Both the position numbers and the translations under genes were made by a program. A stretch of 64,000 bases of DNA, taken from the NCBI GenBank assembly GCA_030390025.1, contig CM059432.1:24430001-24494000 (forward strand). Direction: 5' to 3'. A model generated the notes under the pieces. That model saw only the letters and a list, made by a program, of their open reading frames with translations, was not told the origin of the DNA and ran no database searches. Of the stretch, positions 4,400-59,835 are shown in pieces (position 1 is the first letter of the stretch; each line of letters starts with the position of its first letter). Source of the DNA: Squalus acanthias. Taxonomy: Eukaryota.

Positions 4400-4750
4400 A
4401 TGGGGGCTGAACTGGCATGCCACCTCACCCTCCAGGATCTACGGCAGAGGGAGCATAGGCAGCGAGAAATACGGGAACATGTGCACAGAGGGGTATTCCG
4501 AGAGCACTACTCCTACCTTCAATTAAGTGAGGAACAGTGTTCTGATGAAAGGTCATCGACCTGAAACGTCAACTCTCTTTCTCTCTCTACGGATGCTGCC
4601 TGGCCTGCTGAGTTTTTCCAGCGTTTTCTGTTGTTATTTCGGATTTCCAGCATCTGCAGTATTTTGCTATCGTAACAGTGTATTAGATGGCTCCGCTTCA
4701 CCAAGGAGTTGGCCACCTCCTCCAAACAGACCTCCAGCCTCACACCAGGA
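4400..4750 (+). pseudogene. Harbinger C transposase N-terminal remnant
   Basis: REHYSYLQLSEEQC / IRWLRFTKE, split by the 4541-4673 insert. Confidence 0.75.
4541..4673 (+). ncRNA. Penelope-type short insert with minimal hammerhead ribozyme core
   Basis: gtt-CTGATGA-a-AGGTC-atc-GACCT-GAAAC-GTC-aac; 8-bp TSD aacagtgt at 4533-4540 and 4674-4681. Confidence 0.7.
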
Positions 4751-4915
4751 TGACTTAAACCCCAGATCCCCTTTGCTCACCACATCCCCAACATTCCATC
4801 GCTCTCTCAGGCCATATCACAGCGCAAAGCTGAGATGAGAAACACCACAAAAGAATGGTAAGTGAAGTAATACATTTTTCAAAAAGTAGTGGACACATAT
4901 TTACACCAAAAATAT

Positions 4916-6790
4916 TTACTTTTCACCCTTGTGCAATCCCTTAGTGCCTGTCATTACTGTGCCTTTTCCTGCTCTAGTGCTCCTATGAAGTGTTGGCCCA
5001 GTGGCTGCAGCAGGGCTGGCGGAAGGCTGCTGAGTGTCAATGCAGGAGATTTCAGATGGCCTTGCAGGACGTCCTTGATCAGCTCTGGACCTGGAAAGCC
5101 CGGCTGTAGACTGCACCACCTCAGCATGGGCAGCAGCAGTCTGGGCTGGCTGGATGACAGGCAGCGACAAGGGCAATGGCGGAGTGGCAGTGGTGGAAGC
5201 AGGAATACTGTCATCCTGAGAGAGGACAGCAGCTTTCTGCTCCACTGACCCACTGCCACTCCCCCGGGGCAGCACCTCAGCATCCCCAGCAATCTGTTGG
5301 AGCACAGATTGCTGGCCTGCTGCAACACCGTGAAAGCCCTGGTTGACGGTGGTAGGCCGAGCCACGATGGCAGCAGTCAAAGCTTGTGTGGCATCAAGCT
5401 GAGCCTGCATGAGAGCAGTTTCAGATTGGATGCCATCAAGCATAGACTGCATTACAGCACTAAGATGTTGCATCACTTCTGCCTGTGCTGCAATGGAAGC
5501 TGCCAAATCGCCTGCGGCATCAGGTCTGGGTCACCACGATCTCTCTGGGAGTCTACCATCCTTTGCAGACTGGAAATGATGGGCTCCATGGTGTGCGCAG
5601 AGCCTTGTGCAATGTTGGAGGTGGACTCCTCCACGCTCATTACCATTGCCGAGAGGCTCTCGGGCACCCTTGCCATTGCACCTATTATCTCCGTGTGCAT
5701 GCCCATCACCCTTCTTGTAAACGCCTCCCCATCGAGGTCCTCATCTGTGTCCAGTACAGTAGAACTCGCGCGCGAACTCACCCTCCGGGGAGCTGGCCCC
5801 CGAGCTACCCTTTCCCCCTGGACTTGCTGCAGCCCACTCATCCCTGGTGCCTCACCCTGTGCAGATTCCACTACTATACTAGCCTCTAAAGAATGTGTAG
5901 TGCCAGTATCTGAGCGGGTGAGAGGTGCAGTGATGCGGTGTGTTTTCCTCCTCCTCTTCTCCTGCCTCGCTCTCTATGGTGCCCTCATTGAAATGCTGCT
6001 CAGCTGCTTGCTGATTATCTGAAAGCATAAAAGCACAAGAGTTGGGTTAAAGTGAGGGGAGGGGGCAGGAAGGGAGAAATGCATGCATACAGAATGATTA
6101 GCTGGAACGCTTGTGTGGTGAGGGGGAAGTGGGATGTGAGAAGAGGGAGTAGGGGGTCAAAGTTGCCGGTGGCCACGGCGCTCACCACCTGGTACCCAAT
6201 GATTTGCAGCACTCGATTTTCCAGCGCAGACAGTGGTTGGGTGTCGGCCTGTGCACTCCTGCTCCCTCCTGTCTGTTGTGTGTCACCTTGGCCTGCAAGA
6301 GAAAGGAAAGTGTGTGACTGAGTGTGGAGCAAAGTGTTTGGGTGATGTGTCTGCCATAGTTGAATAGCTGTCATTGTATGCAAGGTGTAAGATGTAGGTG
6401 TGAGTGTTGGTCAGTAGAGATTGTTGGTGGGTGAGTGCTGGGGGTGTGGTGCTTTGGGCAGTGTGTGAAGATTGTGGTATAGATGGTGATTTGTAGCATT
6501 TGTTGAAGCATTCACTAACCCTCACCACCCGAGTGATGTCGTTAAATTTCTTCTGCACCGTGTGTGGGTCCTGGGGACCACATTGCTGCCCGAGATGTGC
6601 TGCGCTACCTCCCTCCACATGGTGCGGAAGACTTGTGGCGAAGGCCTCCTGCCACTTGCTGGGTAGAGCACTGCCCTCTCTCTCTCCATAGCGAAAACCT
6701 GCAGGCTCTCTTCCTGGGGCATGGACCTGCCATGAGCACACCTGGTTCAGTCCTCCAGGTCCTTCTCCTTGTTCTGCTTCTGCTTGCTGA
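4916..6790 (-). pseudogene. 3-exon Myb/SANT-like gene of Harbinger C (frameshifted)
   Basis: KKFNDITRVVR with donor after 6520; acceptors before 6292 and 6018. ORFs 5473-5871 and 4916-5506 are clearly homologous to 33129-34016. Confidence 0.88.
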
Positions 6791-7892
6791 GGCAGCTGCA
6801 CAGCCAGCAATGCTGAGAATGAGTTGCTGCAGCATCAATGAACCTCCCCTTTAAGTAGTGAAAAAAGCCTGTGGCAATGATGAGTTGCGATTAGACTGCA
6901 CCCGATATTAGTCCACCCTTTAAGTGTAATGCCAATGAGCTTAGGTTTTAAGACTTCATTTAGGACTCCAATCATTTTATTGAGCAGTGGAGCACGAATT
7001 TTTCGTGGAGTCTAAAGCAATTGCGTCTGGCGCTAATTCTCCAACTTTTCTACTGACACTGCCCATTCTTTGGCTATAACGAATTTCTAGCCCCTAGTTT
7101 TTTACTGCAGTCGATGAGGACAAAGGTGTCCTGGTCTAAAGAAGAGAAGACATCTAAAGAATTCAATGGACTTCGGGTGATCAGTGTTTTAGCCAACCGG
7201 GCACTTGAAGACTCCAGGACAGGTCTAGTTGTGTTTCTTATTTAATCCATGTGTTAGTGGTTAAATAAAAGATCTCTGTGAGAGAAATAGTGCATGCGTG
7301 TGTTTCTGTTAATTTGGATTCAGATCTATGAACCCTACTCTGACACCTAATGTGGGAGGTGTGAAAGTGGTAAACAATTCTTACATCCTTTCATCCCCTT
7401 GTTCCTCTTCCAAATAACACAACTAGAGAAGAATATCTATATCCAGATTTGTAACTGTAGCAAACAAAGTCTCGCTGCCAATAATCTGGGACAAGAACCT
7501 TCAAAAATAAATACGTTGACAAGCAAAAAACTCTAAATTCAGCTTTCATGAATCTAAAGTTAAAATCCACTTCTCCAAATGAAATTACGGCTGACCACAT
7601 GCCCTTAAAATACTGATTTCTCTGCCCAGAGTATGTCAGACCCTCAGAGACCATTTTATATGAGCAAACTAAACACACAGCAAATTCCTAGTGAGAAAAC
7701 CAGGGAATCATTCCTATGCTGATTTGCAATTTATTAGCATTAAGAATGTTATCAAACCCTTCTTTCCAAGATTCCCTGCCCAAAGCACCACATCCCCAGC
7801 ACTCACCCACCAACAATTCATTTTGACTCCTCTGTTGCTAAGACAGCACTAGGACTACTTCCAGATTGCTTTGTAAAGGCCACCAAGAAAAA

Positions 7893-7995
7893 GACAAAAA
7901 ACCTGAATTTATATAGAGCCTTTCACGACCACCAGACGTCCACAGCACTTTACAGCCAATGAAGTACTTTTGAAGTGCAGTCACTGCTGTAATTA
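7893..7995 (-). mobile_element. DeuSINE 3' tail fragment
   Basis: Reverse complement of the tail at 21640-21740. Confidence 0.7.
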
Positions 7996-8053
7996 TAATA
8001 TTAAAATGAATAAAAGCAAACTAATGTGGATGCTGGAAATCTGGAATAAAAGA

Positions 8054-8937
8054 TTCTTCTTCTTCTTAGGCAGTCCCTCGGAACCGAGGATGACTTGCTT
8101 CCACACTAAAAATGAGTTCTCAGGTGACTGGTGAGTCCAATGCGGGACCTACAGTCTCTATCACAGGTGGGGCAGACGGTGGTTGAAGGGGCGGGTGGGT
8201 GGGGTGCTTGGGTTGACGTGCGCTCCTTCCGCTGTTTGCGCTTTGCTTCCACTTGCTCCTGGCGAAGAGACTCGAGGTGTTCGACGCCTTCCCAGTTGCT
8301 TCTCCTCCACTTTGTGCGGTCTTGGGCCAGGGATTTCCAGGTGTCGGTGGGGATGTTGCACTTTTTCAAGGAGGCTTTGAGGGTGTCCTTGAAGCATTTC
8401 CTCTGGGGCTCTCTTGCCATGTCGGAGCTCCGAGTAGAGCGCTTGTTTTGGGAGTCTCGTATCGGGCATGCGGACGATATGGCCCATCCATCGGAGCTGA
8501 TCGAGCGTGGCCTGAGCAAGAACACTGACGTTGGTGCACCTATCCTGCCAATGGATTTGCAGGATCTTGCGGAGGCAGCGTTGGTGGTACCTCTCCAGTG
8601 CTTTGAGGCTCCCGAGGTATGGAAAGTAGTCCACATTGTCCAAGGCCTTGTCATGGATTTTGATAATCGAGGAGCAGTGCTGTGTGGCGGGGGCAGGTTG
8701 GTAGAGGACCTTTGTCTTACCCATGTTTAGTGTAAGGCCCATGCTCTCGTATGCTTCGGTGAAGGTGTTGACGATGGTTTGGAGTTCGACCTCAGAGTGT
8801 GTGCAAACGCAAGCGTCGTCTGCATACTGTAATTCGATGACAGAGGATGGTACGACCTTGGATCTGGACTGGAGACAACAGAGGTTGAACAGTTTCCCGT
8901 TTGTTCTGTAGATGAGCTCCACTCCAGCGGGGAGCTT
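8054..8937 (-). mobile_element. RTE-clade LINE 3' fragment with internal deletions
   Basis: LQYADD, QLRWMGHIVRM, C-terminal CPTC...SRIGLTSHLRTH, (GAA)n tail. Confidence 0.9.
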
Positions 8938-9185
8938 AAAATGAAGCTCTCCCCCATTTTGGGCAAGAATACTTTACTTGGGCCTATAAAGGCTACCTGG
9001 TTAATCATACTTTACACACAACAGGTGGAAATCCAGCGAGACTGAGTTTCACCTGATTTTTGCAGTCAATGATTACCTAATGTACTCTGGTGCCATTAGC
9101 TATAGTGACCGAGAAATTTGCCCTGTAATATTTGTCACAAAATAGGTAAATAAAGTAGTAAATGATCCTTTGGTGTAAAAAGAAT

Positions 9186-9907
9186 GGGGGAACAATTAGG
9201 TCGCACCCACTTTGCGGCGCTAACTACTTTTAGCGCCTAGCGCCCCACGCCCAAAATTCACCGGCAGCGCCCCTCTTGGGGTGCAGCGAGTGAATATCAC
9301 GCCGCTACGTGCCACAGCGCCACGCTCTGCATTATGTCACGCCGCAGTACTGCAGGCCTTCCGCCTCTTATTAAAGGGGAGGGGCCTTGCGCAGCGCGAC
9401 CCGGGGCCCAGCTGGGCCACCAGGGATTGGAGTGCTGGCAAAAGAGCCCGGCACTCAAGAGAAGTGCCGGGCTCATGGAGCGCAGTTGGCGCTCCGCGGG
9501 GGGGGGCTTCACAGGATGCTGGGGACGGCAACGGGGGCAGATGCTGGCAGGCGGCCAGCAACAAAAATGGCCGCCCGGCACCTCCCCTTTAATTTGCGCC
9601 GCCCCGGCCGCAGGTAGGCCCCCCTGACCCTGTTGGACATAGCGTCTGGCGGCAAGTCAGGGGGCGCTACCGAAGATCGCGACCGGGGCGCGAGCGGGGC
9701 GCTGCGCACGGTGATGATGTCATCGCCAGCCGCTCATCGCCGGCAGCGCAGCACCGCAGGGCGCTAATGGTTACCGCCGCCGCTATCCTCCCGCTGAATT
9801 CGCAGGAGGCGTTGGCGGCACCGCGCCCAGGCGCTAGTTGCTTTGCGCCCCATTAGCGCCCTCTTAGGGCACTAACGGGAGACGCAAATCAACCACATTT
9901 TTAGGCC
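9186..9907. mobile_element. Non-autonomous Harbinger (MITE), GGCGC-motif family
   Basis: AAT TSD at 9183-9185 and 9908-9910; both ends homologous to the ends of the 31837-35982 element; CpG-rich. Confidence 0.85.
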
Positions 9908-10854
9908 AATATGTTTTATGCTGTCAGAGAAAGGACAAACGTAAGTCAAAGTTTCCCTTTGCTCAGTTCTCAAGTCTGAAGAGGAAGTGCTAATAGGAGG
10001 CTACCGTGTCTCTAAACAGAGGAGCGTGAGCAGGATATTCAGAAGGGAGGGTCGAACCTGGACGACCTGTGCCCTCTTGACCAGAAATATCAGGCCAGGG
10101 AACACAGGGAAAAATAGAGAACAAGGAAAGTTACCCAATAGCCAATTAAAAACTACATTTCATTCAAAGAATGCATTTTATATTAAAATACAATTTTTGA
10201 CAGAAAACAAAGTAAATCCAATATTGTGCTGAATATACATATATGATAATTATGGTGAGGGAATAATTTATACAATACAGGGTAGAACCCAGAAGAATGA
10301 GCTGTTAAACTGATCTTTCACATGAAGAAGTGCTGTGGCCACAGTCCAAGACATTTATCCAGCTCGTAGAAGCCATTTTGTGTAAAGGACCCTCGGGCAC
10401 TGCTATAAATCTTGCTGTTCTGCTTAATGAGTTTTGGGCATTGCTATCTCCATCTTGCAGTCACGAATGATTGCTGACATTTTCAGGTAGTGATATGTAT
10501 TTATATAATGATTAAGTATGAGATTTGGTGAATATTTTTTGTGATAAAGTGAATTTAACAGTCAATGTTGTAATTGAAAATGAGTTGAAGGGAAAATTGT
10601 GTTACATGAGATGTTGGAAAATGTTTTGAAAAACTTATGTTAATTTATGCATAATCGAATGTCAGTTCCAGCAAAACTAAAAGAAAAACAACTTTAATGC
10701 TGAAAGATCATTAAATAGTATTTCTAATAATTTTGTTCACATTCTTAAAAAGTGTGAAAGCTGCAGAGTACTTTTTGCAATAGCCTGGAAGGGCAAAACA
10801 CAAATAGAAAATGACTAAATTTACTTACAACAAAGGGATAAATTGTCCAAGATT

Positions 10855-11431
10855 AGAATCATAGAATGATACAGCACAGAAAGAGAACAATAGGCCCATT
10901 GTGCCTCTGGAGCTCATTGAGCTATCCAATTAGTCCAATTCCCCTGCCCTTTCCCCATTGGCCCTGCAATGTTTTCTCCTTCAAGTATTTATTCAATTCC
11001 CTTTTGAAAGTTACTGTTGAATCTGCCTCCACCACCCTTTCAGGCAGTGCATTCCAGATCATAACAACTCGCTGCATTAGAAAAAAAATCTCACCTCGAG
11101 TTCTTTTGCCGATTACCTTAAATCTGCTTACTGACCCTTCTGTCACTGGAAACAGTTTCTTATGTACGCTATAAAAACCCTTCATGATTTTGAATACCTC
11201 TATTAAATTTCCCCTTAACCCTCTCCGCTCTAAGGAGAACAACCCTAGCTTCTCCAGTCTCTCCACATAACTGAAGTTCCGCATCCCTGGTACCATTCTA
11301 GTTAATCTCTTCTGCACCCACTCCAAGGCCTTCAGAAAGTATGGTACCCAGAATTCAACAGAATACTCCAGCTGAGGCCTAACTAATGATTTATAACAGT
11401 TTATCATAACTTCCTTGCTTTTGTACTCTAT
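10855..11431 (-). mobile_element. CR1 LINE 3' fragment; continues at 15704-15777 beyond Harbinger E
   Basis: YKSLVRPQLEY...VWNALPERVVEA-type ORF (10922-11407) and CR1 tail. Confidence 0.9.
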
Positions 11432-11710
11432 GGGCTGGATTTTGATACTGGGGTGGGCGGGGGTCGTGTAATCCGCATTTCGTGTTAGCCACCCATTTCT
11501 AAATCGATGTGCGATAATGATGCTATTTTAACCTAATTGGCCAATTGAGTTCCAACGTGTGGGAACCCATGGCCAGTGAGTTTTTCCAGTCTGAAAGTCG
11601 CCTTCAATGACGTCATCATTGCTGCTGCATTTAAGGTCTGCAACAAGCCTTGCTTCCTCTGCAGACTGCCAAGCTTTTGCCCTTGCATGTTAGAGGCACC
11701 TGCAGGATGA

Positions 11711-13667
11711 ATGGCCAGCCAGAGACCTAGGTCTGCACCTCGCTTTGATGACATTGCCCTGCAGGCTTTAGTAGAGGGAGCAAGAGCAAACAGAGCTCTT
11801 CCCTTCTTCAGGGAGGAAGAAGCCTTCCCAGCAAACCAAGGCTGTGTGGATCCAGGTGGCGGAGGAGGTCAACTCTTTGACAATAACCCACAGAACCTGG
11901 GTTCAGTGCAGGAAGAGGCTTCATGACCTTCTGCGCACTGGAAAAGTGAGTATGAATTTCCCATCACCCTCAATCTGATCCCCATTGCCTCTCCTCACCA
12001 GCACTCAGCTTTAGCAATCTCTTCCTCCACATCCCACTTGACACTGACATCCATGCACCCTTACCCATTCCCTCTCTCTCTATGGTCACATTCACCTAAC
12101 TATTCGACTATGCAGCCCTCACACTCCCTATCACTGTGATGTAATTACAACTTACAACACACAGGGAGGGCCCTTGGTCTTGCCACCTCACTCCATCTTT
12201 GTCTCCTTCTAAGCATCTATGCTATGGATTCTCTACACTCACTCCTTCATTCTCATTCATCTCCACTTGTCTCCCTCATTGCAGGAAAAGAGAGCTCACA
12301 ATAAGAGGCAAAGAGCGAGGACAGGAGGAGGGCCACCCTCAGTAGCCCAGCTCACCACCTGGGAGGAGGCGGTCCTGGAGACAGTGGGAGTGGAGGAAGA
12401 TTCCCAAGTAGGGGACGGACAGATAGGCGCATCACAGCAAGCTGGTGACAGAATAGTTTTCCATCTCTCTCAATGACATTGCATGAGTCGCTGATAATGA
12501 TTCTGAAGCTCTAACAGATGGACTTATGATCATCTGCAATATGCAATGTGCATGTAACCTTGGCCTCACTTCTCTGACTCTTTCCTTTACTCTCCCCCAG
12601 GACCATCGCAAGCACCCGTCCCCACTATCCAGGAGGAAGAGCATGAGCCTCAAGACTCCTCAGAGGAAGCTGCAACCTCTGAGGGCGCAGCGTCAGCAGG
12701 AATCAGCGCACCTAGCACCAGCGCAGACACTCACACCTCGGAGGGAACATCGCGAGATAGAGTAGTGTTGTCACCTGGTGTATCACAGCTCACAAGTGAG
12801 CATCAGCAGATAGTGGAGACAGGGACAGCAGTGGAGAGTCCTAGTCGGAGGGCGCAGGACTCTCCCAGCTCAGCTCAGTTGCATGTCGACCCTCTGCCTC
12901 TGGGTCCATCCATAAGATCAGCGGTGCTGGAACTCCAGGAACAGGTGCAGGAGTCTCTGGCAGGTTTTGTCTCCAGGGTCGCTGCGAGTGTGGAGTGAAT
13001 GGAGGAGTCCATTGCGAACATGAGCAGAGCCTTTGTGGAGTCATTGGCGCATGAACGCATCACCACGGAAAGGATGGCAACCTCCGTGGAAAGGATGGCT
13101 ATGGTAGAGGAGAGGATGGCTACGGCCATGGAGGAGCTAAGTCGCCAGAGTGTAGAAAACATGGTCATTGTTCAGAATAGACTGGCATCTCTTGAGGAGC
13201 GATGGTCAGCTACTGCGCATAGAAACCAGACCTTCATTGAAGTCCTCTGGATTAGGACTTCCAGTGCAGAAACGGGTCCTCATGGCCCCCCTGAAGTGCA
13301 GCAAGGTGCTGTCAAGCCACTTGCTAGCTCTGAAGTGGGGCTGACCCATGAGAGGGATGTTGGTGGCAGACAACAAGGAAGTGGGGGCTCCTCTCCAAGC
13401 GCTCAAACAACCATGCCACTGTAAAGCCCTCGGTCAGAGCCCCACCAGAGTTCTCACCCAACTGAGATGGGCGTCTCATCCCCTGCACAGCCGCAGGAGC
13501 AGCAGACTGTTGGTGAGCCCTCACAGGTTCGCAACCCCAGAGGATGCCCGCCAAAGGTGTCGAGACAGGAGCAGCAAGAAAGTGAGCAAGGGGCCTCCAC
13601 ATCTGCTGAAGCCACAGGGGAAGCACCACGTAGGAGCATGCATAAGAGAAAGATAGTGCACAAATAG
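11711..13667 (+). pseudogene. Myb/SANT-like gene of E; exons 11711-11945, 12285-12444, 12601-13667
   Basis: APRFDD...WIQVAEEVNS...RTWVQCRKRLHDL|GT, then AG|EKRAHNKRQRARTGGGP. Frameshift in exon 1, TGA at 12996, and a further frameshift near 13420. Confidence 0.9.
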
Positions 13668-13924
13668 TCACAAGGGTAGTCACTTGGGTGAATTTTGATG
13701 TTTTATGTTAAAAAGCCATCAGATGATTACTGTAAATAAAAAATCTGATGGCTACTGCTGTAGTTGTGGCGTGTGTCATTTTGCGAATGGGACTTCCACA
13801 TTGAGGGCTTAGGATTACTTGCAATTGTCAGTATGGTGTTAAAATTGCTAGGAATCCGCTGGTTCTTGGCCATTGTCGATGCTCAGGTAAGAAGCTGCAA
13901 GGCAGAAGTGCTTGATTGGCTAGG

Positions 13925-15175
13925 CTAAGCAAATCTGGCCAAGATGAGTGTGTTTCTTGCATCCCGGGCAGCAATGTTCTCGAGTACTGCTGCCGCTGGT
14001 TGATGGACCTCTGCAAGATGTTCGTTTTCGCTCTCCTCCTCCTCCTCCTCCTCCTCCTCATCTGAGGATGATATGTGACGAGCCACTTGGTCCTCAGGAA
14101 TCTGCAAGCCACGACGCTGTGCCATGTTGTGAAGTGCACAGCAAAGCACAATGATTCTGGAGACCCTGGCTGCTGAGTACTGCAGGGCTCCACCTGATCT
14201 ATCCAGGCATCTGAAGCGCATCTTTAGCAAACCGATGGTTTGCTCGATTATGGCTCTGGTGGACATGTGGCTGGAGTTGTAGCTCTCCTCAGCTTCGTTG
14301 GATGGGCTCCTTAACAGCGTCATTAGTCACGTCTTCAGGGGATAGCCCTTGTCTCCAAGTAACCATCCGTTAAGTTGGTCTGGCGGACTAAATAGCGGAG
14401 GCACACTAGACTGGTGCAGTATGAAGGAGTCATGGCAACTGCCAGGGTACTTGGCACAGACATGCAAAATTTCTTTCTTGTGGTCACACACCAGCTGAAC
14501 GTTAAGGGAGTGGAAGCCCTTGCGGTTGACAAAAATACCTGGATTGCGATGGAGTGCCTTAAGGGCCATATGTGTGCAGTCAACGACGCCCTGCACCCTT
14601 GGAAAGCCTGCCAGATTAGCTAATCCATCCGCATGCGCCGTGACACTTGCTTGATCCTTGGTGAAATGGATGTGAGTGTGCACGATGGCTAAGAGGGCAT
14701 CGGTTACCTGCATGATACAAGTGTGTGCGGCCGCCTGGGAGATGCCGCTGATGTCTGCTGCTGATCCCTGGAATGACCCTGAGGCAAAAAAGTTGAGTGC
14801 GATGGTGACTTTGACGGCCACTGGTAAGGGTTGTCCACCTGGTCCTCTGGGCTCCAGGTCTTGTTGCAGCATTGCGCAGATGTCACCCACTACCTCTCGC
14901 AAAAGTCGGAGCTGCCTTTGGCACTGCTGCTCAGACATGTTGAGGTAGCTGACCCTGTGTCTGTAGACCCTGTTTGGGGGGTATCTCCTGCGCTGACGGG
15001 CTTCCATGCGCTGGCCCCTTCTGGCCTGTGCAGCTTCAGGTGTGTGAACAGCAGCTTGGCGCTCCTGTTGTTGCTGCTGCTGTTGGTGCTGCTGTTGTTC
15101 ATGGTTCTGCTGGTGCCGCGGCTGGTCTTCGTCCTCATCTGATGTCCAGAAGGGAAGGAAATAAATGGCTCCCAT
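13925..15175 (-). pseudogene. Harbinger E transposase, 416 codons, one in-frame stop
   Basis: ORFs 14327-15175 and 13925-14323 are in the same frame; TGA replaces the conserved Trp in (W)LMT. Motifs VDCTH, SCHDS, GDKGY, IEQTIG are present. Confidence 0.95.
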
Positions 15176-16157
15176 GCTTCTGGTATATGCCTCAGTTGAG
15201 GAAGCGCTCAGTCAAGGTGGCGAGAGGGGTTTCCCAGGAGGTCACACTGGAGATGGGTGTCAGGCTCCAAACTTCCACAGGTGGTAATGCCTTCTAAAAG
15301 TTACCCCAGACCTGAGACAGCAAAGTCCTGCCACTTGCAAATGATGGCTGATCAAATCTCCTATTTAATGGTTGAGCTGTAGCTGATAGTCAGCAATCCA
15401 ATTGTGCTACCACCAGGTTTCACCGTCGTGTTTAAGAACAGGCGTGCTTCATGTGGGAAAAGGGTTAAAATCACAAAGGCCTATCAAAATGGCATTATAG
15501 AGGCAATTAAGTGCTTGGTAAGGGCCTTAACGGCCTATCCAGCCTCTTGGAGGCGGGACGGAGACGGGACCATTCGACACAATTTAATGAAAATTGCTTG
15601 GAGGCGGGATGGAGGCGGGGTTGGGCCCGCCCACCAGTTTTTGCAATTTTAACCACCCACACGCCTCCAATCCCGCCTCAACGGCCTGATGAAAATCCAG
15701 CCCTCTGCCTCTGTTTATGAAGCCCAGGAACTCATATGCTTTTTAACAGCCTTCTCAATTTGTCTTGTCACCTTCAAACAAAATACAGAGAAGGCCGCAA
15801 CAGAATGAAAATCACCTCATGCTTTCCTAAAGATTTGGTAACATGTAATATTGATTCGGTTGCTGGTCCATATTGAGTTAGCTGATCACCATGAGAATGG
15901 TACAGTTGGCCTCAGTGGCCTTGAGCTAGGGAGAGGAGTAGAAAAAATGTTAGCTTTCCTGTTCTTTGTCACTGTTTAGTGTCCTTTGTTGGAATTGTGT
16001 TTGTGATGGATGTTGTTAGTGGATTTATTTCCATCAAGTGACGACAATGTGAGATTCACAGTCTGGGTACACGTATTAGCTTTACTCAGTGGTAGAACTC
16101 TCACCTCTGAGTTAGAAGAATGTAGGTTCAAAAATGATTGTAGGATTTGAGCACATT

Positions 16158-16448
16158 GGGGTGGAGTTTCTGCTTTGAGCGCAATCGGCAATCCGGGCGT
16201 AAATTGCACTCAAAATAGCGCTGGTTTTCTGAATTGATTTTATGTTTCAAGTTTCACTTCTCACAGCACAGTAGATAACCAATGCATTATAGCATTAGAG
16301 TTCCAACACAATGTTTTTTTAAACCAGTGTAAAAGATCGCGGATAGTCGATTTGCGCTGGACGGAATTTGCGCTTGAAATTCTTTGATCTTTTATGCTGG
16401 TTTGGACGATTTGGGGCGAATGTCGCAATGTAGCAGAAACTCTAGGAC
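16158..16448. mobile_element. Short Harbinger-like MITE
   Basis: Terminal inverted match GAGTTTCTGCT; TSD ATT/ATA; host SINE is contiguous across it; internal segment recurs near 27085-27140. Confidence 0.7.
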
Positions 16449-16782
16449 ATAATCTAGAATTGCATTTCAGTGTAGTACTGAGGGAGTTCTGCATTGTCAG
16501 AAGTGCTGTCTTTCAGATGAGACCTTGATTAGAAGCCCCATCTGCCTGTTCATGTGGACTTAAAAGATCCCATGATACAATTCAAAGTGTACTCTTGGAA
16601 GCCTGGCTATCATTTATTCCCCAACCAGCACCATCAAAACAGATCTTCTCATTATTCATCAAATTTTCTGTTTCTGGGACACTGCTGTGCAAAAACAGGT
16701 TGCTGTGTTTATCTACATAACAAAAGTGACTAAATTTCATACGTAAATCATTGGCTGTGCAGGGCTTTGGGATATCCTAAGA

Positions 16783-18789
16783 ATGAGGACATATAAATTG
16801 GCCAGAAAAAGCAGCAAACCTGAGGATTGGGAGCAGTTTAGGATTCAGCAAAGGAGGACAAAGGGATTAATTAAGAGGGGGAAAATAGAATATGAGAGTA
16901 AGCTTGCAGGATACATAAAAACTGACTGTAAAAGCTTCTATAGATATGTGAAGAGAAAAAGATTGGTGAAGTCAAGCTTAGGTCCCTTGCAGTCAGAATC
17001 AGGGGAAATTTATAATGGGGAACAAAGAAATGGCGGACCAATTAAATACATCCTTTGGCTCTGTCTTCACAAAGGAGGACACAAATAAACTCCCAGAAAT
17101 GTCGGGGAACATAGGGTCTAATGAGAGGGAGGAACTGAATGAAATCAGTATTTGTAGGGAAATGGTGTTAGGGAAATTGATGGGATTGAAGGCCGATAAA
17201 TCCCCAGGGCCTGATAATCTACATCCTAGGGTACTTAAGGAAGTGGCCCTAGAAATAATAGATACATTGCTGGTCATCTTCAAAAATTCTATAGACTCTG
17301 GAACAGTTCCCATGGATTGGAGGGTAGCTAATGTAACCCCACTATTTAAAAAAGGTGGTAGAGAGAAAACGGGGAATTATAGACTGGTTAGCTTGACATC
17401 GGTAGTGGGGAAAATGCTAGAGTCCATTATAAAAGATGTAATAGCAGTGCACTTGGAAAACAGTGACAGGATCAGACAAAGTCAACATGGATTTACAAAA
17501 GGTAAATCATGCTTGACTAATCTACTGGAATTTTTTGAGGATGTAACTGGTAGAATAGATAAGGGAGAACCAGTGGATGTGGTGTATTTGGACTTTCAGA
17601 AGGCTTTCGATAAGGTCCCGCATAAGAGATTAGCGTGCAAAGTTAAAGCACATGGGATTGGGGGTAAGGTACTGACTTGGATAGAGAACTAGTTGGCAGA
17701 CAGGAAGCAAAGAGTTGGAATAAACAGGTCTTTTTCCGAGTGGCAGGCAGTGACTAGTGGGGTACCACAGGGATCGGTGCTAGGACCCCAGTTATTCACA
17801 ATATATATTAATGATCTAGACGAGGGAACTAGATGTAATATCTCCAAGTTTGCAGATGACACAAAGCTGGGTGGGCATGTGTGCTGTGAGGAGGATGCAG
17901 AGAAACTCCAGTATGATTTGGACAGGTTGGGTGATTGGGCAGATGCATGGCAGATGCAGTATAATGTGGATAAATGCGAGGTTATCCACTTTGGTGCCAA
18001 AAACAGGAAGACAGATTATTATCTGAACGGCAATAGATTGGGAAAAGGGGAAGTGCAACGAGACCTGGGTGTCCTTGTGCACCAGTTGATGAAGGTAAGC
18101 ATGCAGGTGCAGCAGGCAGTTAAGAAGGCAAATGGTATGTTGGCCTTCATAGCGAGAGGATTCGAGTACAGGAGCAAGGATGTCTTGCTGCAGTTGTACA
18201 GGGCATTGGTGAGACCACACCTTGAGTATTGTGCGCAGTTTTGGTAGCCTTATCTGAGGAAGAATGCTGTTGCCATGGAGGGAGTGCAGCGAAGATTCAC
18301 CAGACTGATACCTGGGATGGCAGGAATGACATATGAAGAGTGATTGGGTCGATTAGGCTTATATTCGCTAGAGTTTAGAAGAATGAGAGGGGATCTCATT
18401 GAAACTTATAAAATTCTAACAGGACTAGACAGACTAGATGCAGGAAGGCTGTTCCCGATGGCGGGTGAGTCCAGATCCAGGGGTCACAGTCTAAGGATAA
18501 GGGATAAGCCATTTAGGACTGAGATGAGGAGGAATTTCTTCACCCAGAAAGTGGTGAACCTGTGGAATTCTCTACCACAGAAGGTAGTTGAGGCCAATTT
18601 ATTAAATATATTCAAGAAGGAGTTAAATACATTTCTTTAGGCTAAGGGGATCAAGGGATATGGGGAGAAAGCAGGGACAGGGTACTGAATTTGAATGATC
18701 AGCCATGGTCGCATTGAATGGCGGAGCAGGCTCGAGGGGCCGAATGGTCTACTCCTGCTCCTATCTTCTATGTTTCTATGTTTCTATGT
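16783..18789 (+). mobile_element. CR1 LINE, 5'-truncated, RT domain with stops
   Basis: YLDFQKAFDKV, GVPQGSVLGP, FADD, (TTCTATGT)n tail. Confidence 0.95.
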
Positions 18790-30815: not shown

Positions 30816-31438
30816 GGGGGGAAATTTAATCCCAAAAAATGGGTGGGTTGGGGTCGGGTGGGAGGTTAAAGTATAAAATTGTGAATCCCGACCCCAAACC
30901 GCCTCCAACCCACCCAATTCCAGATGGGATGGGGGCGGGCAGCCAACCCGCTCCAAGGAGGTAGGTTGGCACTTTAAATATTATAATGAAGCTGGAAGCC
31001 TCTGATTTAACCTGCTGTGTGATTTAATCTGATTTAACCCCCGGCCCCCTGAGCTCCCCCATCATCAGCATCCCCCCCCCACCATAAAACCACCACCAGG
31101 TTCGGACCCCCCGGGATTTGGGTTCGGACTCCCCTGGGGATCGGTCACCCCCCCACCCCCGGGTCAGGAATTAAACCCCCCCCGAGGATCGCCCCCCCTT
31201 CCCCCGGGGTCAGGGTTCACACCTACCTGTGGTTGCAGCCTCCTATCCAGCGTTACCCGCCCGACTGGAAACCAGTCTGTCAATCAGGCTGACTTCCGGT
31301 GAGGAACGTGTCCGTGACCTCACACGCACGCTGTGGAGTTAAAACTCCACAGTGTGTGGGAAAACCCGGAGTTCTGGGTTTCCCACACTCTACCGGGCTC
31401 CCCCAATCCGGGCGGGTCAAAAACGTACAATTCCGGCC
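30816..31438. mobile_element. Harbinger-like MITE with C-rich centre
   Basis: GGGGGGAAATT ... AATTCCGGCC ends; GGCGGG motifs; interrupts transposase J. Confidence 0.7.
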
Positions 31439-32196
31439 TTTGTGTCTCTAGTGAGGCTTTCATAGAATTGTGTCACCTCCTGCAACAAGAACTGCAATCA
31501 ACTACCACAGCTAGCACAACACTGCCTGTTGCAGTGATTTTCACTGCAGCCTTCAACTTCTTTGCCACTGGCTCTTTCCAGGCTGCCGCAGGGCATTTCA
31601 GTAACATCAATCAGTCTGCAGTTCATGCGTGCATTAAGCAGGTAACTGATGCCATGTCTTCTCGAGCTAACACTTTCAGCACTTCCCCCATGAACAACAG
31701 AAAGCAGCGGGTTAGGGCACTGGGGCTTGAGCAGATTGCAGAATTCGGCCAAGTCCAGGACCTCATTGTCTGCATCCACATCACCCTACACTTTCCTTCA
31801 GATGACCCCACTGCCTTCATGAATTATAGAGTCATAGGGGTAAAAATTAGGTCGCGCCCCATTTGGGGCGCAAATATCGTCTGGACGCAAATATTAGCGC
31901 CTGGCGCTAATTATCGGCACTGACTGGAAACTTCACTTTTACCGCCCCGGGAGGTGAGTGGAAAGCTAAATCAGGCGTTGCACACCTGTCTTAAGGCGCA
32001 AAGGCCAAGGAGTGAGGCGCTAACTCAGCGCGCGAGCGCAGCGCAGCTGCTGCCAGTTAGCGAGGGAACACAGACACACTGGCGCCGGCCACTTCTTAAA
32101 GCGGGGGGGGGCCAACTTGCTCCCCAGCCACACGCTGCTCATTGCAGCCTTGAATCTCAGCCTGGAGAGACCTGTGAATCCATTTTGCTGCCAAGC

Positions 32197-34016
32197 ATGG
32201 AGAGGGTGAGAGAACGTGCTCATCGCTTCACCGAGCGGGCCTTGGATGCTCTGGTTGGCGCGGTGGAGCGCAGACGATGTATGCTCTTCCCTGAGAGTGG
32301 CAGGAGGCCTTTGCCACGCGAGTTCAGAAGAGTGTGGAGGGAGGTGGCTCAGAGCGTCTCCTCCAGGAGCATGGTGCCCAGGACCCATACACAATGCCGC
32401 AAAAAGTTCAACGACCTCACTCGGGTCGTCAGGGTGAGTGGCTTTTTCTCAATACCTCTCCATCCCTCCATCTCAACCTCACTCTATGGCCAGAGGGTCT
32501 TAAAACCCCAATGCACAACACTCATCCAACACCTATGGCCCTTTCATGAAACACACACACACATTCCACACTTTGCATACAGTAAGGGCTATTCACCTAT
32601 GGGAGGCACATCAGGCAAGACCATGGCTGCATACAGTAAGGGCTATTCACCTATGGGAGGCACATCAGGCAAGACCATGGCTGTATATTTACTCAGATGC
32701 TGTCCTTTTTCTTACAGGCCAAGCTGGCGCATAATCGGAGACAGCAGCAACGGACAGGTGGAGGGCGGCCTCAGCTGCAACCCCTCAGCGATCTTGAGGA
32801 GCGCGTCCACAGGATTGTGGCAAGCCGGGTGATCGGTCCCGTCGCCACTGGAGACGCCGACCCCGTTCTGGACAGCAATGGTAAGGTCATCACCTTTTTG
32901 TCCTCTGTCCTTCCACTTGTCCCTCACAACACCAGCCTTTGACACTTTCAATCCACCTTGCTAACTCGCTGCACTTATTCCTCCCTTACTGCCACCCTGT
33001 CCTCACGCTAAAGCCACTCTTGTACCTCCCTGCTTTCAGATGGTGATTCACCAGCTGAGGAGACGGGCCCTGAAGCTGCCAGTGGGAGTGAAGCTGCAGC
33101 CGAGGAGGAAGAGGAAGCCGGAGCATCAGTGCCACCCTCTCCCGAGGAAGCCCATGCCCACACTGGGAACACGCCTTCCCTGGAGGGAAGCAGGGGGGAA
33201 GGGTCTGATGAGGGTGAAGCTCCAGGACCCAGCGGGCTGCAGCAACGCCATGGAGGTAGGGAAGAACGGGGGCCTTCTCCCCAGAGGGAGAGTATGCCAG
33301 ACACTCCTACTGCAATGGACGCAGAGGAGGAGCGGCTGATCGCAGAAATGAACACCCAGGCGGTGGGCATGCACACTGAGCTCATGGGTGCAGTGGGAAG
33401 GGTGCCCGAATGCATTGAGTCACTGGCAAGGAGTGTGGAGCACTTCGCTGTAGCACAGGCGGATGCCACACTAACGCTTAGTGCTGCAATTCAGTCACTG
33501 GCTGCCGTGATCCCATCTCTGACTGCTCTCATGCAGACTCAGATTGAGGCCACGCGAGCACAGACTGCTGCCAACCTCGATGGTTCGTGCACATGTCCCC
33601 GGGGCTGTCACCGCGCCGCAGCAGGCCAGCAATCTGTTCTCCGGCAGATTGCTCCGGATGCTGAAGTGCTGCCCCGTGGGAGTGCCAGTGTGTCGGGCGA
33701 GCAGGGAGTTGCTGTCCTCTCTCACGATGACAGCATTCCTGCTGCCAACACTGTCACTTCTCCACTGCACTTGCCACCGCCTGTAGGACAGACTGCTGCC
33801 GCCCATGCAGAGTTGGTGCAGTCTGCAGCCGGGCCCTCCAGGCCCAGAACTGGTCGAGGCCGTCCTTCAGGGGCATCTGCAGTGTCAGGGTCTGACGAGC
33901 AGCAGCCTTCCACCAGCCTTGCTGCAGCCACTGAGGTCCCATTACAGAGGAGCAGTAGGGTTAGAAGGGGGGAAGTGCGCAAGGGAAGGAGATCACCCTC
34001 GAAGGGCAAAAAGTAG
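32197..34016 (+). CDS. Myb/SANT-like DNA-binding protein, join(32197-32433, 32718-32880, 33040-34016), 458 aa
   Basis: GT-AG introns with compatible phases (0, 1); 237+163+977=1377 nt with no internal stop. Sequence RAHRFTE...WREVA...RTHTQCRKKFNDL, RTGGG motif, basic C-terminus. Confidence 0.9.
32574..32681. repeat. Perfect 2 x 54-bp tandem duplication in Myb intron 1
   Basis: tgcatacagtaagggc...aagaccatggc repeated. Confidence 0.95.
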
Positions 34017-34292
34017 GAGGTGTGACAAAATGCTGGTCATTTTTTTATTAAAGGTCGAGGTTCATGGTCCAACTTTTGTTTAGTGTTTTGGACATTATCT
34101 CCAGGTTGTGAGAACCAGTTATGTTATTGACTGTTTTTTTGTGTTTATTTCTATGAGTTTGTCATGAGGAATTGACACACACAGAGTTTGTAAAATAAAT
34201 AAGTTTCTGTATTCAAAATATACATGGTTGGTGGTTGGAATTATTGGTGCCTTGGTCGGCTTAGGGGTTGCGTGCTGGGTTCATTAATGTTG

Positions 34293-35471
34293 TTAGCAAT
34301 GGCAGGGGCCCGAGAAGCGGCTTGCTATTAGCCGTTGACGGACGGCCCTTGCAGTTTGACCATTGTGGGCCGCCCTCCCGCCTTGGTGCTGCTGATGATC
34401 ATCGTCCTCGTCCTCTTCCTCCTCTTCCTCCTCCTCCTCTGGTGGTGCTCCAAGGCCTGGTGGCATTGGCTGGGTCCTGAGGATTGCCATGTTATGCAAC
34501 ATGCAGCACACGACTACGAAGTTCGATACTCGCTCAGGCGAGTACTGCAGGGCTCCTCCGGAATGGTCCAGACAGCGGAACCGTTGCTTCAGCACGCCGA
34601 TTGTGCGCTCAATAATGTTCCTGGTAGCTTGATGGCTCTCATTGTACCGCAGCTCAGCAGGGGTGTTGGGCGTACGGAGCGGTGTCATCAGCCAGGTGCT
34701 CAATGCATACCCCTTGTCCCCGAGAAGCCAACCAACTGGCTGATGCGGTGCCTCGAAAAGTTCTGCCACAGTAGTCTGGCGCAGGATAAAAGCATCGTGG
34801 CAGCTGCCAGGATAGTGGGCATTGACAGCGAGTATCAGCTGTCTGTGGTCACAGACCAACTGGACATTCAAGGAATGGAACCCCTTTCTGTTCCTGAATT
34901 CCTCGGCATTCTCATGCGGAGCACGCAAAGCCACATGCGTGCAGTCAATGGCGCCCTGCACCATGGGGAAGCCCGCTACCCTCGCAAAGCCCAGAGCGCG
35001 GTCACGCTGCTTGTCTGGGGTCATGGGGAAAGAGATGAACTCTCGTCTCCTTCTGAAGAGGGCATTTGTGACCTGCCGGATGCAGCAATGCACCGCGAAC
35101 TGGGAGATATTGGCGAGGTCCCCAGCAGCAGCTTGAAATGAGCCAGTAGCGTAAAAGTTCAAAGCCACTGTGACCTTCACTGCCACCGACAGAGACGTCC
35201 TGGACCTCAGTTGAGGCTGCAGATCTGGCTGCAGCAGGTGGCAGAGCTCAGTGACCACCTCCTTGCTGAATCGCAGCCTTCACAAACACAGCTCCTCGGA
35301 CATATGGATGTAGGAGAGCTGTTCACGATATACCCTGGGAGGGTAAGCTCTCCTGTACATACGCCTGATGGCCCTCCTCCGTCTGGCCATCATTGCCACT
35401 CTCTCTCTGCGTCTCTGTATCCTCCGATTCAGCTGGAGCAGGACGACGCCCCCAATCAGTGCAGCCCCCAT
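34293..35471 (-). pseudogene. Harbinger L transposase, 392 codons, single premature TGA at 35280-35282
   Basis: ATG at 35471; frame continues ELCL*RLRFSKEVVTEL. Catalytic motifs GAIDCTH, SCHDA, LGDKGY and IERTIG are intact. Confidence 0.95.
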
Positions 35472-36376
35472 ATTCTCTTTGCAAGCAAAGTTATGAAGGA
35501 CAGCAACTAAAGTACCAGCGAAGTTAGGATCAATAGGCAAAAGTTCCTCACAAAGCGTTGAGTCAATGTAGAAGTCTCTCTTTCTCTCTCTCCGAATCTC
35601 TCTCTCTCTCTCAGAACGAGTGGTGCAAAAATGTCGACCACAGAAAAAGACAGGAAGAGGCCCCCTTTAAATAGCGCCCCCCCCAGCCCCACAGCGATTG
35701 ATAGCGTTCCAGTCTTCCGGTCGTTGGAAGCGCCAGGCGGTAAGGCAGGGGGCGCCACTCAATTTCCGCTCCGGGGCGCCACAAGGGCGTTGCACCATGG
35801 AATGACGTCACAATCTGCGCGCGCAGGTGGTCGCAGCGGTAAGTTTTAGCGCCGCCGCACAATCTCTAGTTAAGTTCCCGAGCGGCGCAAACATCGCTGC
35901 GCCCGGGCGTTAGCGGCTTTGCGCCCCATTAGCGCCCTCTTAAGGCGCTAACGGGAGGCGCAACCAACTGAATTTTTACCCCATAGAGTTATACAGCACA
36001 GAAAGAGGCCCTTCGGCCCATCATGTCCGCACCGGCCATCAAGCCCTGTCTATTCTAATCGCATTTTCCAGCACTTGGTCCGTAGCCTTGTATGCTATGG
36101 CGTTTCAAGTGCTCATCTAAATGCTTCTTGAATGTTGTGAGGGTTCCTGCCTCTACCACCCTTTCAGGCAGTGAGTTCCAGATTCCAACCACCCTCTGGG
36201 TGAAAAAGTTTTTCCTCAGCCCAGGTAACATCCTGGTGAATCTCCTCTGCACCCTCTCCAATGCAATCACATCCTTCCTATAGTGTGGCGACCAGAACTG
36301 CACACAGTATTCCAGCTGTGGCCTAACTAGCATTTTGTACAGCTCCAACATAACCTCCCTGCTCTTATATTCTATG

Positions 36377-36496
36377 ATGTGGAGATGCCGGTGTTGGACT
36401 GGGGTGGACAAATGTGAGAAGTCGCACAACACCAGGTTATAGTCCAACAGCTTTATTTGAAATCACAAGCTTTTGGAGTGCTGCTCCTTCGTCAGG
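36377..36496 (-). mobile_element. Penelope-type short insert with degenerate hammerhead core
   Basis: Reverse strand CTGACGA-a-GGAG-cagca-CTCC-AAAAGCTT...AATAAA; 12-bp TSD ttatattctatg at 36365-36376 and 36497-36508. Confidence 0.7.
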
Positions 36497-38139
36497 TTAT
36501 ATTCTATGCCTCGGCTAATGATGGCAAGTATCCTATATGCCTTTTTAACCACCTTATCTAAATGTCCTGCTGCCTTCAGGGATCTATGTACATGCACACC
36601 AAGGTCCCTCTGATCCTCTGTCCTTCCTAGGGTCCTACCATTCATTGTGTATTCCCTTGCCTTGTTAGTCCTCCCAAAATGCATCACCTCACACTTTTCA
36701 GGGTTAAATTCCATTTGCCACTGTTCTGCCCACCTGACCAACCCGTCTATATCGTCCTGTAGCCTGAGGCTTCCCTCCTCGCTATTTACCAACCCACCAA
36801 TTTTCGTGTAATCTGCGAACTTACTGATCATACCTCCTACATTCATATCTAACTCATTAATGTACACTACAAACAGCAAAGGACCCAGCACCGTTCCCTG
36901 CGGTACACCACTGGACACAGGCTTCCAGTCACAAAAACAACCTTCGACCATCACCCTCTGCCTCCTGCCACTAAGCCAATTTTGGATCCAATGTGCCAAG
37001 TTGCCCTGGATCCCATGGGCTCTTACCTTCTTGACCAGTCTCCCATGCGGGACTTTGTCAAAAGCCTTACTGACGTCCATGTAGACCACATCAACTGCAT
37101 TACCTCATCCACACACCTAGTCACCCCCTCAAAAAATTCAATCAAATTGGTCAGACATGATCGCCCCCTGACAAAGCCATGCTGACTATCCTTGATTAAT
37201 CCTTGCCTCTCCAAGTGGAGACTAATTCTGTCCCTCAGAATTTTTTCCAATGATTTCCCTACCACTGATGTTAGGCTCTCTGGCCTGTAATTCCCTGGTT
37301 TATCCCTACTACCCTTCTTGAATAATGGTACTACGTTAGCTGTCCTCCAGTCCTCTGGCACCTCCCCTGTGGCCAGAGAGGTTCTGAAAATTTGTGTCAG
37401 AGCCCCTGCAATCTCCTCCCTTGCCTCACACAGCAGCCTGGGATACATCTCGTCTGTCCCTGGGGATTTATCCACTTTTAAGCCCTCTAAAACCACTAGT
37501 ACCTCCTCCCTCTCAATACTAATTTGTTCAAGTATATCACAATCCCCCTGTCTAATTTCTATGCCTACATCGTCCTTCTCCATAGTGAACACAGATGCAA
37601 AATATTCATTTAAAACCCCACCTACATCTTCTGGCTCTACGCACAGATTGCCACTTTGGTCCCTAATGGGCCCTACTCTTTCCCTGGTTATCCTCTTGCC
37701 CTTAATATACTTATAAAACACCTTGGGATGTTCCTTTATTTTGCCCGCCAGTGTTATTTCATATATCCTCTTTGCTCTCCTAATTTCTTTAAGTACCCCC
37801 CTGCACTTTCTATACTCCTCTTGGGCTTCCACTGTTTTTAGTCCTTTGTATCCGCCAAAAAACTCCCTTTTTTTTCCTAATCCATTGCAAGGGCTTCCAC
37901 CGTAAACATGTACAACTTGTGCGATCATCAACACTGCAATATGCAGGTCACTTTCCTGGCAGCTGCCCTGATTGCTTTTATATTACACCAACCCTTCATT
38001 GTTTTTCCACACACCCCCCACCATCCCCCCGCCCCCATTAACTCTTTGCCTATGCACAGCAATGGTAGTGTAGGTCATGTTGGTCATGCTGATTGTGTGA
38101 GCGTGTGAGTGAGAGAATTAAATCGAAAGAGAAAAGGAA

Positions 38140-49805: not shown

Positions 49806-50698
49806 GGGGGAGAAATTCAGTATCGCCCCATTTGGGGCGCAATTATTGGCCGGGTGCAAAGATTAGCGCCTGGCGCTAATTATTGCCACCGACTGCAAAC
49901 TTGACTTTTATCGCCCCTGGAGGTGATTGGAGCGCTAAATCAGGCGCTTCACACCTGTCTTAAGGCGCAAAGGCCGAGGAGCGAGGCGCTACCTCAGAGC
50001 GCTGGCGAAGCTTATGTAATGTCAGTCAACAATGGAACACACACACAATGACACGGGCCAATTTTTAAAGGGGATGGTTAATCTTGCTTTCCATCCACAT
50101 CCTGCTCATTGCAGCCTTGAATCTCGGCCTGGAGAGACCTGCACATCAAATCTGCTGGAAAGATCAATGGAGAGTACCAGGCAAAGAGCTCAGAGTGCAG
50201 CCCCCACAATCTCTTCTAAATCGATACAAGGAATGGTAAATCAAAATGAACCTGCAAAGTGCTGCTCAGTACCCAAAACTCCTTCACACAACGTTGAATC
50301 TCTCCAGAAGTCTCTCCCTCTCTCTCTCAGAATGCGTAGTTCAAAAATGGCACCAACAATAAAAGGCAGGAAGCGGTCACCTTTAAATAGCGCTCCCCCT
50401 TTCCCTTCATGACTGCAGAACGCTCCCCTCAACCTGTCGTTGCTAGCGTCAGGCGGTAAGGCAGGGGGCGCCACTCAATATCCGCTCCGGGGCGATACTG
50501 GGGCGTTGCGCACTCGACTGACGTCACGATCTGCCGGCGCAGGAGATCGTGGCGGTAGTGTTTAGCACCGCTGCAAAATGTCTAGTTAATTTCGCGAGCG
50601 GCGCAAACTTCGCCGTGCCTGGGCGCTAGATGCTTTGCGCCCCATTAGCGCCCTCTTAAGGCGCTAACGGGAGGCGCAACCAACTGAATTTTTCCCCC
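49806..50698. mobile_element. Non-autonomous Harbinger N, deletion derivative of the L family
   Basis: 15-bp TIR with 1 mismatch; ATA TSD. Left part matches 31837-32220 and right part matches 35458-35982. Confidence 0.92.
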
Positions 50699-59146: not shown

Positions 59147-59154
59147 TATGACTC

Positions 59155-59835
59155 AAGTATCCCATATGCTTTTTTAACCACCATATCTACCTGTCCTGCT
59201 GCTTTTAGGGATCTATGTACATGCACACCAAGGTCCCTCTGATCCTCTGTCCTTCCTGGGTCCTACCATTCATTGTGTATTCCCTTGCCTTGTTAGTCCT
59301 CCCAAAATGCATCACCTCACACTTTTCAGGGTTAAATTCCATTTGCCACTGTTCTGCCCATCTGACCAACCCATCTATATCGTCCTGTAGCCTGAGGCTT
59401 CCCTCCTCGCTATTTAGCACTCCACCAATTTTCGTGTCATCTGCGAACTTACTGATCATACCTCCTACATTCATATCTAAATCATGAATGTACACTACAA
59501 ACAGCAAAGGACCCAGCACCGATCCCTGCGATACACCACTGGTCACAGGCTTCCAGTCACAAAAACAACCTTCGACCATCACCCTCTGCCTCCTGCCACT
59601 AAGCCAATTTTGGATCCAATGTGCCAAATTATCCTGGATCCCATGGGCTCTTACCTTCTTGACCAGTCTCCCATGCGGAACTTTGTCAAAAGCCTTACTG
59701 AAGTCCATGTAGACTACATCAACTGCACTACCCTCATCCACACACCTAGTCACCCCCTCGAAAATTCAATCAAATTGGTTAGACATGATCTCCCCCTGAC
59801 AAAGCCATGCTGACTATCCTTGATTAATCCTTGTT
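59155..59835 (-). mobile_element. CR1 RT fragment, same subfamily as 36510-37210
   Basis: ORF 59205-59753 is nearly identical to 36463-37089. Confidence 0.92.

Follow-up and report, generated by a model that had tools for sequence, protein, structure and literature searches.

Transposition of zebrafish Harbinger3_DR and of rice Ping/Pong is reported to require both of the proteins that these two-gene transposons encode (PMC2836001, PMC9179366). Harbinger3_DR, which was reconstructed (Sinzelle et al. 2008), combines a DDE transposase with a Myb-like protein, creates a target site duplication (TSD) of 3 bp with a CWG core and inserts at a palindromic target (PMC3016246, PMC2836001); it is the sole vertebrate Harbinger that we found reported to transpose after reconstruction. 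The Ping/Pong elements of rice are naturally active, and short derivatives such as mPing are moved in trans (PMC2836001). NuwaII (Han et al. 2015, PMC4482050) is described as having DDE_Tnp_4 and Myb open reading frames (ORFs), GG-starting terminal inverted repeats (TIRs) of 13-46 bp, a length of ~4-5 kb and a 3-bp TSD of TNA core flanked by C and G. Harbinger-Snek of sea kraits is a two-gene Harbinger of very high copy number with many near-complete copies and deletion derivatives, for which intact copies were counted (269 and 1), RNA coverage was given and transfer was documented (PMC8437027). As regards sharks, two surveys give Harbinger-type or PHIS elements as absent from sharks or elephant shark, and one of the two asked that further species be looked at (PMC4482050, PMC9179366); in a shark genome published in 2025, Tourist/Harbinger are named as the commonest DNA transposons (PMC12498223). 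Here we describe a Harbinger-type element in a 64,000-nt stretch of the Squalus acanthias genome (contig CM059432.1, positions 24,430,001 to 24,494,000), hereafter the window, to which all positions refer.

The element shares with the described systems a DDE transposase, a Myb-like protein and a 3-bp TSD, and like Harbinger-Snek it belongs to a very numerous vertebrate family. It is unlike Harbinger3_DR in having an ATA in place of a CWG core and a cartilaginous fish as host. From NuwaII, whose short GG-starting TIRs and C/G-flanked TSD it shares, it differs in the core (ATA/TAT here) and in its TIR length of 12 bp. Literature searches, whose scope did not extend to Repbase and Dfam, found no paper that describes a particular Harbinger family of sharks. 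The copy shows how one such family is built throughout, down to the true C-terminus of its transposase and a C-ATA-G variant of the target. A second vertebrate family could help to dissect the two-protein mechanism and the choice of target, although the gain would be incremental.

A full-length copy with two lesions in its transposase gene

Very probably the element is a full-length copy, itself non-autonomous, of a two-gene DNA transposon of the PHIS kind that is abundant and likely young. Its parts are listed in Table 1. The perfect TIRs would arise by chance at the given positions with a probability of 6e-8 and the 3-bp TSD with one of 0.016; between the ends lie a Myb/SANT gene, open if spliced as modelled below, and, converging on it, a DDE transposase gene. 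In this anatomy the original prediction holds good. It does not hold in its further claim that the copy is apparently one base from intact, with a 392-codon transposase and only one visible lesion: the native stop has also been lost, the protein of the family has 386 residues, and Myb residue 436 (Q) is altered as well.

The transposase frame, with its read-through tail, runs to 392 codons (35471-34293, - strand), and the TGA at codon 64 is the only stop within it. The GAID, GD-GY and ER-IG motifs can all be located, and D176, D252 and E288 are presumably the catalytic triad expected of the family.

Both lesions were judged against sister copies, for which all contigs of four of 22 runs (X1, X13 and X7 from coded organisms A and B, X9 from organism D) were aligned to 31660-36060. 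At 35282 the sister contigs carry G in 169,987 of 174,001 units of depth in X1 (97.7%) and in ~100% in X13, X7 and X9. Arg thus accounts for 98-100% of sister depth at codon 64 in each of the four runs, so that the TGA is decay of this copy, a CGA>TGA transition at a CpG, as had been predicted. Among 95 aligned homologs the residue is Arg in 51 and Gln in 17. The prediction had drawn on two copies in the window (IRRLRF near 1530 and QRQL near 14930); these do read Arg, but they are not sisters, belonging to distant families of 57-69% amino acid identity, and were rejected as proof of the ancestral codon for that reason.

The second lesion lies at codon 387. At 34312, T makes up 98.6-100% of sister depth in each of the four runs, and this codon is then TAG; the family transposase is therefore a protein of 386 residues that ends in RQRLIASRF. 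Of 18 homologs that match the corresponding end motif, R..L[IV]...F, 12 terminate at most 2 residues from it, and in the predicted structure the final helix stops at residue 386 (predicted local distance difference test score 89). The copy is unable to encode its own transposase, yet it could supply Myb protein if expressed. Its ends seem intact, so that it could be mobilised in trans.

It might be argued that the stop at codon 64 is an error of sequencing or assembly, or is read through, and that the copy is functional; it is, after all, a single base, and the rest of the catalytic core is in frame. This is highly improbable. The change is a textbook CpG transition, ~2% of X1 depth is likewise non-G at 35282, and the loss of the native stop is a second, independent lesion, accompanied by further copy-specific changes.

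In the transposase leader, the letters at 35543 and 35545 are unlike those of every sister contig, and the sister form at these places resembles a splice donor on the - strand; the two changes may constitute a third, regulatory lesion. Sixteen departures of the transposase from the residue found in at least 60% of 120 distant homologs were also considered as lesions and rejected, being mostly conservative; only V165 recurs among the sister differences, of which 40 of 107 rows were covered.

Table 1. Coordinates of the element, its parts and associated features in the window
Feature	Position	Strand	Details
Older decayed Harbinger transposase, first part	31369-31827	+	60/60 query proteins match; cut just before KGFH
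Harbinger-type element	31837-35982		4,146 bp; two genes, convergent
Left TSD, ATA	31834-31836	none	direct repeat pair with 35983-35985
Left TIR, GGGGTAAAAATT	31837-31848	+	12/12 matched to right end, mismatches beyond
Left subterminal region and Myb gene leader	31849-32196	+	repeated GCGC-core words
Myb/SANT exon 1	32197-32433	+	79 codons, Myb domain; PF13873 (Myb_DNA-bind_5) E 6e-9
54-bp tandem duplication in Myb intron 1	32574-32687	none	
Myb/SANT exon 2	32718-32880	+	splice inferred; AKLAHNRR..RTGGG motif common to relatives
Myb/SANT exon 3 to TAG	33040-34016	+	acidic middle, basic C-terminus
Read-through tail of transposase	34293-34310	-	6 residues, due to lost native stop
Codon 387 of transposase	34311-34313	-	TCG here, TAG stop in sisters; second lesion, native stop lost
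DDE_Tnp_4 (HARBI1-type) transposase	34314-35471	-	386 codons; PF13359 E 5.7e-40
Premature TGA, codon 64	35280-35282	-	sisters read CGA (Arg)
Transposase leader, (CT)n tract, right subterminal region	35472-35970	-	repeated GCGC-core words
Right TIR, reverse complement of GGGGTAAAAATT	35971-35982	-	12/12
Right TSD, ATA	35983-35985	none	
CR1 long interspersed element, 5'-truncated	35986-37882	-	tail repeat hosts element; RVT_1 E 7e-21
Older decayed Harbinger transposase, continuation from KGFH	37883-38024	+	14/60 query proteins, best E 7e-7
Non-autonomous deletion derivative, related subfamily	49806-50698	+	893 bp, ATA TSD

Differences from the sister copies

Sister contigs span the whole element in all four runs, with 38,243 contigs placed in X1. 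The median internal depth in X1 is 5.6e5, against 34 for one flank contig (a ratio of ~5,000-17,000), and the element ends are 2.4-4.5 times deeper than the interior. Summed contig depth, which gives an order of magnitude only, was rejected as an exact copy number; to that order, the family is likely to number thousands of copies.

Over 4,401 bases each run shows 60-70 differing places (1.4-1.6%), in which private and subfamily differences are mixed; set against the pooled majority, the copy departs at ~1.5% of sites. The nearest sisters are perhaps closer, X1 containing 0.88 of the sampled words, which would correspond to ~0.4% divergence per base. Among 40 of the 107 difference rows, there are nine places where each of the four runs reads otherwise at 84% of depth or more: four are non-coding and two silent, and the remaining three are Myb Q436, the lost transposase stop and the nonsense codon 64. 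Position 32134, in the left subterminal or leader region, differs from nearly all sisters. Differences at the level of the subfamily are found at M29, F43 and T404 of the Myb protein and at I18, A116 and V165 of the transposase. Two indels reach a share of at least 40%, both upstream of the Myb gene, and at that share neither gene has a frameshift. Rare variants are lost in contigs and CpG decay is therefore underestimated here.

The copy is near the family form, yet more than one base separates the two; for any reconstruction, a family-majority sequence or that of an open sister would serve better. Among its many sisters it is ordinary, one more broken copy, and the element is of a kind already known.

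The Myb/SANT gene

Both introns of the predicted Myb gene have GT-AG borders and the spliced frame is open over 458 residues; an alternative exon 2 acceptor at 32724 would give a protein of 456. The splice model is supported by homology, because the alignments of 63 of the 70 matched relatives (75 proteins searched) cross the junction of exons 1 and 2, and P0139 can be aligned with residues 5-455 of the spliced protein at 37% identity. A search with exon 1 gave 75 matches, the best again P0139 (60%), and the seven top relatives looked up belong to clusters that are of sharks in six cases and of rays in one. Residue 436, Q here and R in the sisters, reflects the loss of a CpG at base 33946, where G is lacking in 5% of X1 depth.

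The open Myb frame raises the question of whether this gene has been co-opted by the host, as a NAIF1/MSANTD-like gene, while the transposase decays. The frame is open across all 458 codons, and two of the three near-private coding changes (again among 40 of 107 difference rows) are silent. However, the TIRs and TSD are intact, sister copies abound, and with so little divergence chance alone would be expected to leave the frame open; co-option is therefore extremely improbable.

Contigs of X13 and X9 both stop at 32603, within the tandem duplication of intron 1, which suggests that the duplication is a family trait. Two Pristiophorus japonicus models, P0137 and P0138, each contain two or three tandem Harbinger-type Myb/SANT modules, and possibly represent a domesticated, internally duplicated gene or else fused models.

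Classification and target site

Several features place the element with the two-gene PHIS/Harbinger transposons. It has a DDE_Tnp_4 transposase with its catalytic motifs (and one nonsense codon), a second ORF of the Myb/SANT type, and the short TIRs starting with G, 3-bp TSD and length of ~4 kb that PMC4482050 gives for the group, and it belongs to a dispersed multi-copy family with non-autonomous derivatives. With a nonsense codon at 64 and no native stop at 387, it is not an autonomous element. At E<=1e-20 the transposase matches 411 relatives, and among those that are named the best come from sharks and rays; with shorter transposase fragments, 144 candidates yielded 16 matches, the best at 60% and none near-identical. 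The closest named proteins are models annotated as genes and not as transposons, such as 'putative nuclease HARBI1' and Myb models from sharks and rays, Pristiophorus japonicus and Heptranchias perlo among them (transposase 66% and 61% for P0001 and P0002, the best value being that of Pristiophorus japonicus); they belong to different families and none is near-identical. A search by sequence among solved structures gave no relative at E<=0.01, and a fold search gave nothing at E<=0.001; its weak rows of DDE integrases and transposases (best E 0.013) are not used as evidence.

The TSD is flanked by C and G at both of the sites available, that of the element and that of the derivative at 49806-50698, as it is in NuwaII, although the sample is small. 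The core is ATA/TAT at both, one base off the TNA of NuwaII; it is neither the TWA of PIF/Harbinger in the narrow sense nor the CWG of NuwaI and Harbinger3_DR. Compared by eye with the Harbinger3_DR target consensus AAACACCWGGTCTTT (PMC3016246), the flanks of the element (AGAGTC-ATA-GAGTTA) agree at 6 of 12 positions and those of the derivative (AAAAGC-ATA-GTGTAT) at 8 of 12.

If the element works as Harbinger3_DR and Ping/Pong do, its Myb/SANT protein would attach both to the element ends and to the transposase and carry the latter into the nucleus; the GCGC-core words repeated at both ends may be its binding sites. The DDE transposase would then excise the element and integrate it where the target is loosely palindromic, leaving a 3-bp duplication. 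In the present case the target would have been C-ATA-G between A-rich and T-rich flanks, as offered by the CR1 tail repeat.

The derivative at 49806-50698 had been proposed as a substrate for transposition assays. It exists and has an ATA TSD, but it belongs to a related subfamily, its ends being 79.5% and 81.5% identical to those of the element (59/60 over the last 60 nt); it would be a plausible though not ideal substrate, and the element's own ends would be a better one.

Some observations weigh against the reading of the element as a full-length two-gene PHIS copy with the lesions given above. Its TSD matches none of the published group consensuses exactly (TWA, CWG, C-TNA-G; PMC4482050). 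Exon 3 of the Myb gene, taken alone, matches no relative at E<=1e-5 among 8,000 candidates; neither Myb intron is bridged among the 15 of 47 joints listed for the contigs of the four runs; and an X13 contig crosses the border of exon 1 and intron 1 unspliced, X13 possibly being RNA. Further, the list of lesions rests on 40 of the 107 difference rows and is thus incomplete.

Age and present activity of the family

Judged by sequence, the family is likely to be young. With the mutation rate of the epaulette shark (7e-10 per base per generation, confidence interval 1.4-14.1e-10; PMC10587355), the divergence of 0.4-1.6% would correspond to ~6-23 million generations, a figure that is too high if CpG and subfamily differences dominate. 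The prediction of a recently active family is therefore borne out in sequence terms, by the low divergence, but not in the sense of a short time, since that divergence equals millions of generations. Under a rough model with assumed rates of nonsense and indel mutation, 5-46% of copies would be open in both genes, which makes a copy with one stop unremarkable. Open copies probably exist elsewhere, because the family is very abundant and little diverged; here the earlier suggestion of intact copies elsewhere gains support.

A stronger proposal, compatible with the classification above, is that the family is active today, with open master copies transposing elsewhere and the present copy a recent casualty. 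In X1, G is lacking in only ~2% of depth at the CpG site 35282 and in 5% at 33946, and both the word share of 0.88 and the modelled fraction of open copies speak in its favour. On the other hand, the divergence in generations is large (with a rate taken from another shark), an identical full-length protein is absent from the best 120 of the 411 transposase matches, neither a spliced transcript nor an empty-site joint across the whole element was seen among the 15 of 47 joints listed, and the low CpG decay is itself understated by contigs. Present activity is thus possible, but we regard it as doubtful.

Occurrence in other organisms

Seven coded organisms have 0.54-0.88 of the words of the element, with 0.57-0.62 in organisms C-G (runs X8-X15). 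Among organisms C-G, only D (X9) was compared contig by contig, and runs X19 and X20 (share 0.05) were not used. In X9, where the median depth is ~40, eight long contigs match the element at 98.8% of 2,333 bases (27 differ); the depth is 0 at the CR1 site 36023 and no contig passes the right end of the element. In X1, X13 and X7, the depth at 36023 is 2.5-11 times that at the element site 35282 (control stretch 78 bases).

One explanation would be horizontal transfer of the family, with this shark lineage and unrelated animals as the partners. The spread of the words over seven coded organisms and the X9 copy, 98.8% identical and without the adjoining CR1, would fit such a transfer, and Harbinger transfers have been published for sea kraits (PMC8437027) and, at 96-98% identity, between salmonids and carp (PMC9179366). 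However, X9 is two-allelic at 34527, 34707 and 35125, as are the runs of A and B; its depth profile tracks theirs (Spearman 0.52-0.55 over 27 bins, 0.24-0.43 over the 22 internal bins); and its contig breakpoints coincide with those of X13. Furthermore, X22, which has the organism code (E) and study of X10 and X12, contains 0.00 of the words while X10 and X12 hold them, and no near-identical named non-shark protein was found in the searches with the transposase, its fragments or Myb exon 1. The CR1 control covers only 78 bases, and a single one of organisms C-G was compared. Alternatively, the X9 signal would be explained by trace DNA of another cartilaginous fish, or by a relative at low coverage with different CR1 subfamilies; this fits because X9 shares its two-allelic sites, depth profile and breakpoints with the A and B runs. 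We therefore consider horizontal transfer unlikely.

In its boldest form the proposal would be that a young, very high-copy family with a C-ATA-G target recently crossed at ~99% identity into at least one unrelated animal among organisms C-G and still has open copies. This is improbable; if true, it would make cartilaginous fish a hub of Harbinger transfer and provide a broad-host, sequence-preferring vertebrate transposon for testing. The transfer lead, if true, would be of more importance than the anatomy of the copy. In the main text of Zhang et al. 2020 (PMC7070016), the words Harbinger, shark, Chondrichthyes and cartilaginous have 0 occurrences.

Surroundings of the element in the window

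The element lies in the tail repeat of a CR1, a few tail bases of which are left on its other side (about 31826-31836). The CR1 in turn lies within a decayed Harbinger transposase of greater age, which it interrupts exactly at the N-x-KGFH motif, and both junctions of CR1 and older Harbinger show a short ATT overlap. The order of insertion is thus old Harbinger, then CR1, then the young element, a nest of three layers at 31369-38024, because the older transposase resumes at KGFH past the CR1 and the element lies in the CR1 tail. The host CR1 subfamily is fairly young as well; over 682 bases, the CR1 pieces at 36525-37205 and 59154-59833 share 95.5% identity.

Transposase queries match ten blocks of the window, this element included, and there are several further ends of the Harbinger type; two of the ten blocks overlap Myb genes, as one query is a fused model. 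A related Harbinger-type element at 3894-7093 has both ends and a decayed Myb gene (- strand, ~6700-4920, 42-54% amino acid identity in parts), and directly outside its left end is a transposase-like block (3198-3557). Decayed two-gene Harbingers of other families, whose genes converge and whose transposases are 57-69% identical with several stops, are seen at ~1-2495 and ~11778-15037. Short Harbinger-type elements with related ends occur at 9186-9903 and 63077-63778, with apparent duplications of AAT and TAT/TAA. The TSD core therefore varies in the window (ATA, AAT, TAT/TAA, possibly CTG/CTA), and flanks that are A-rich on the left and T-rich on the right recur.

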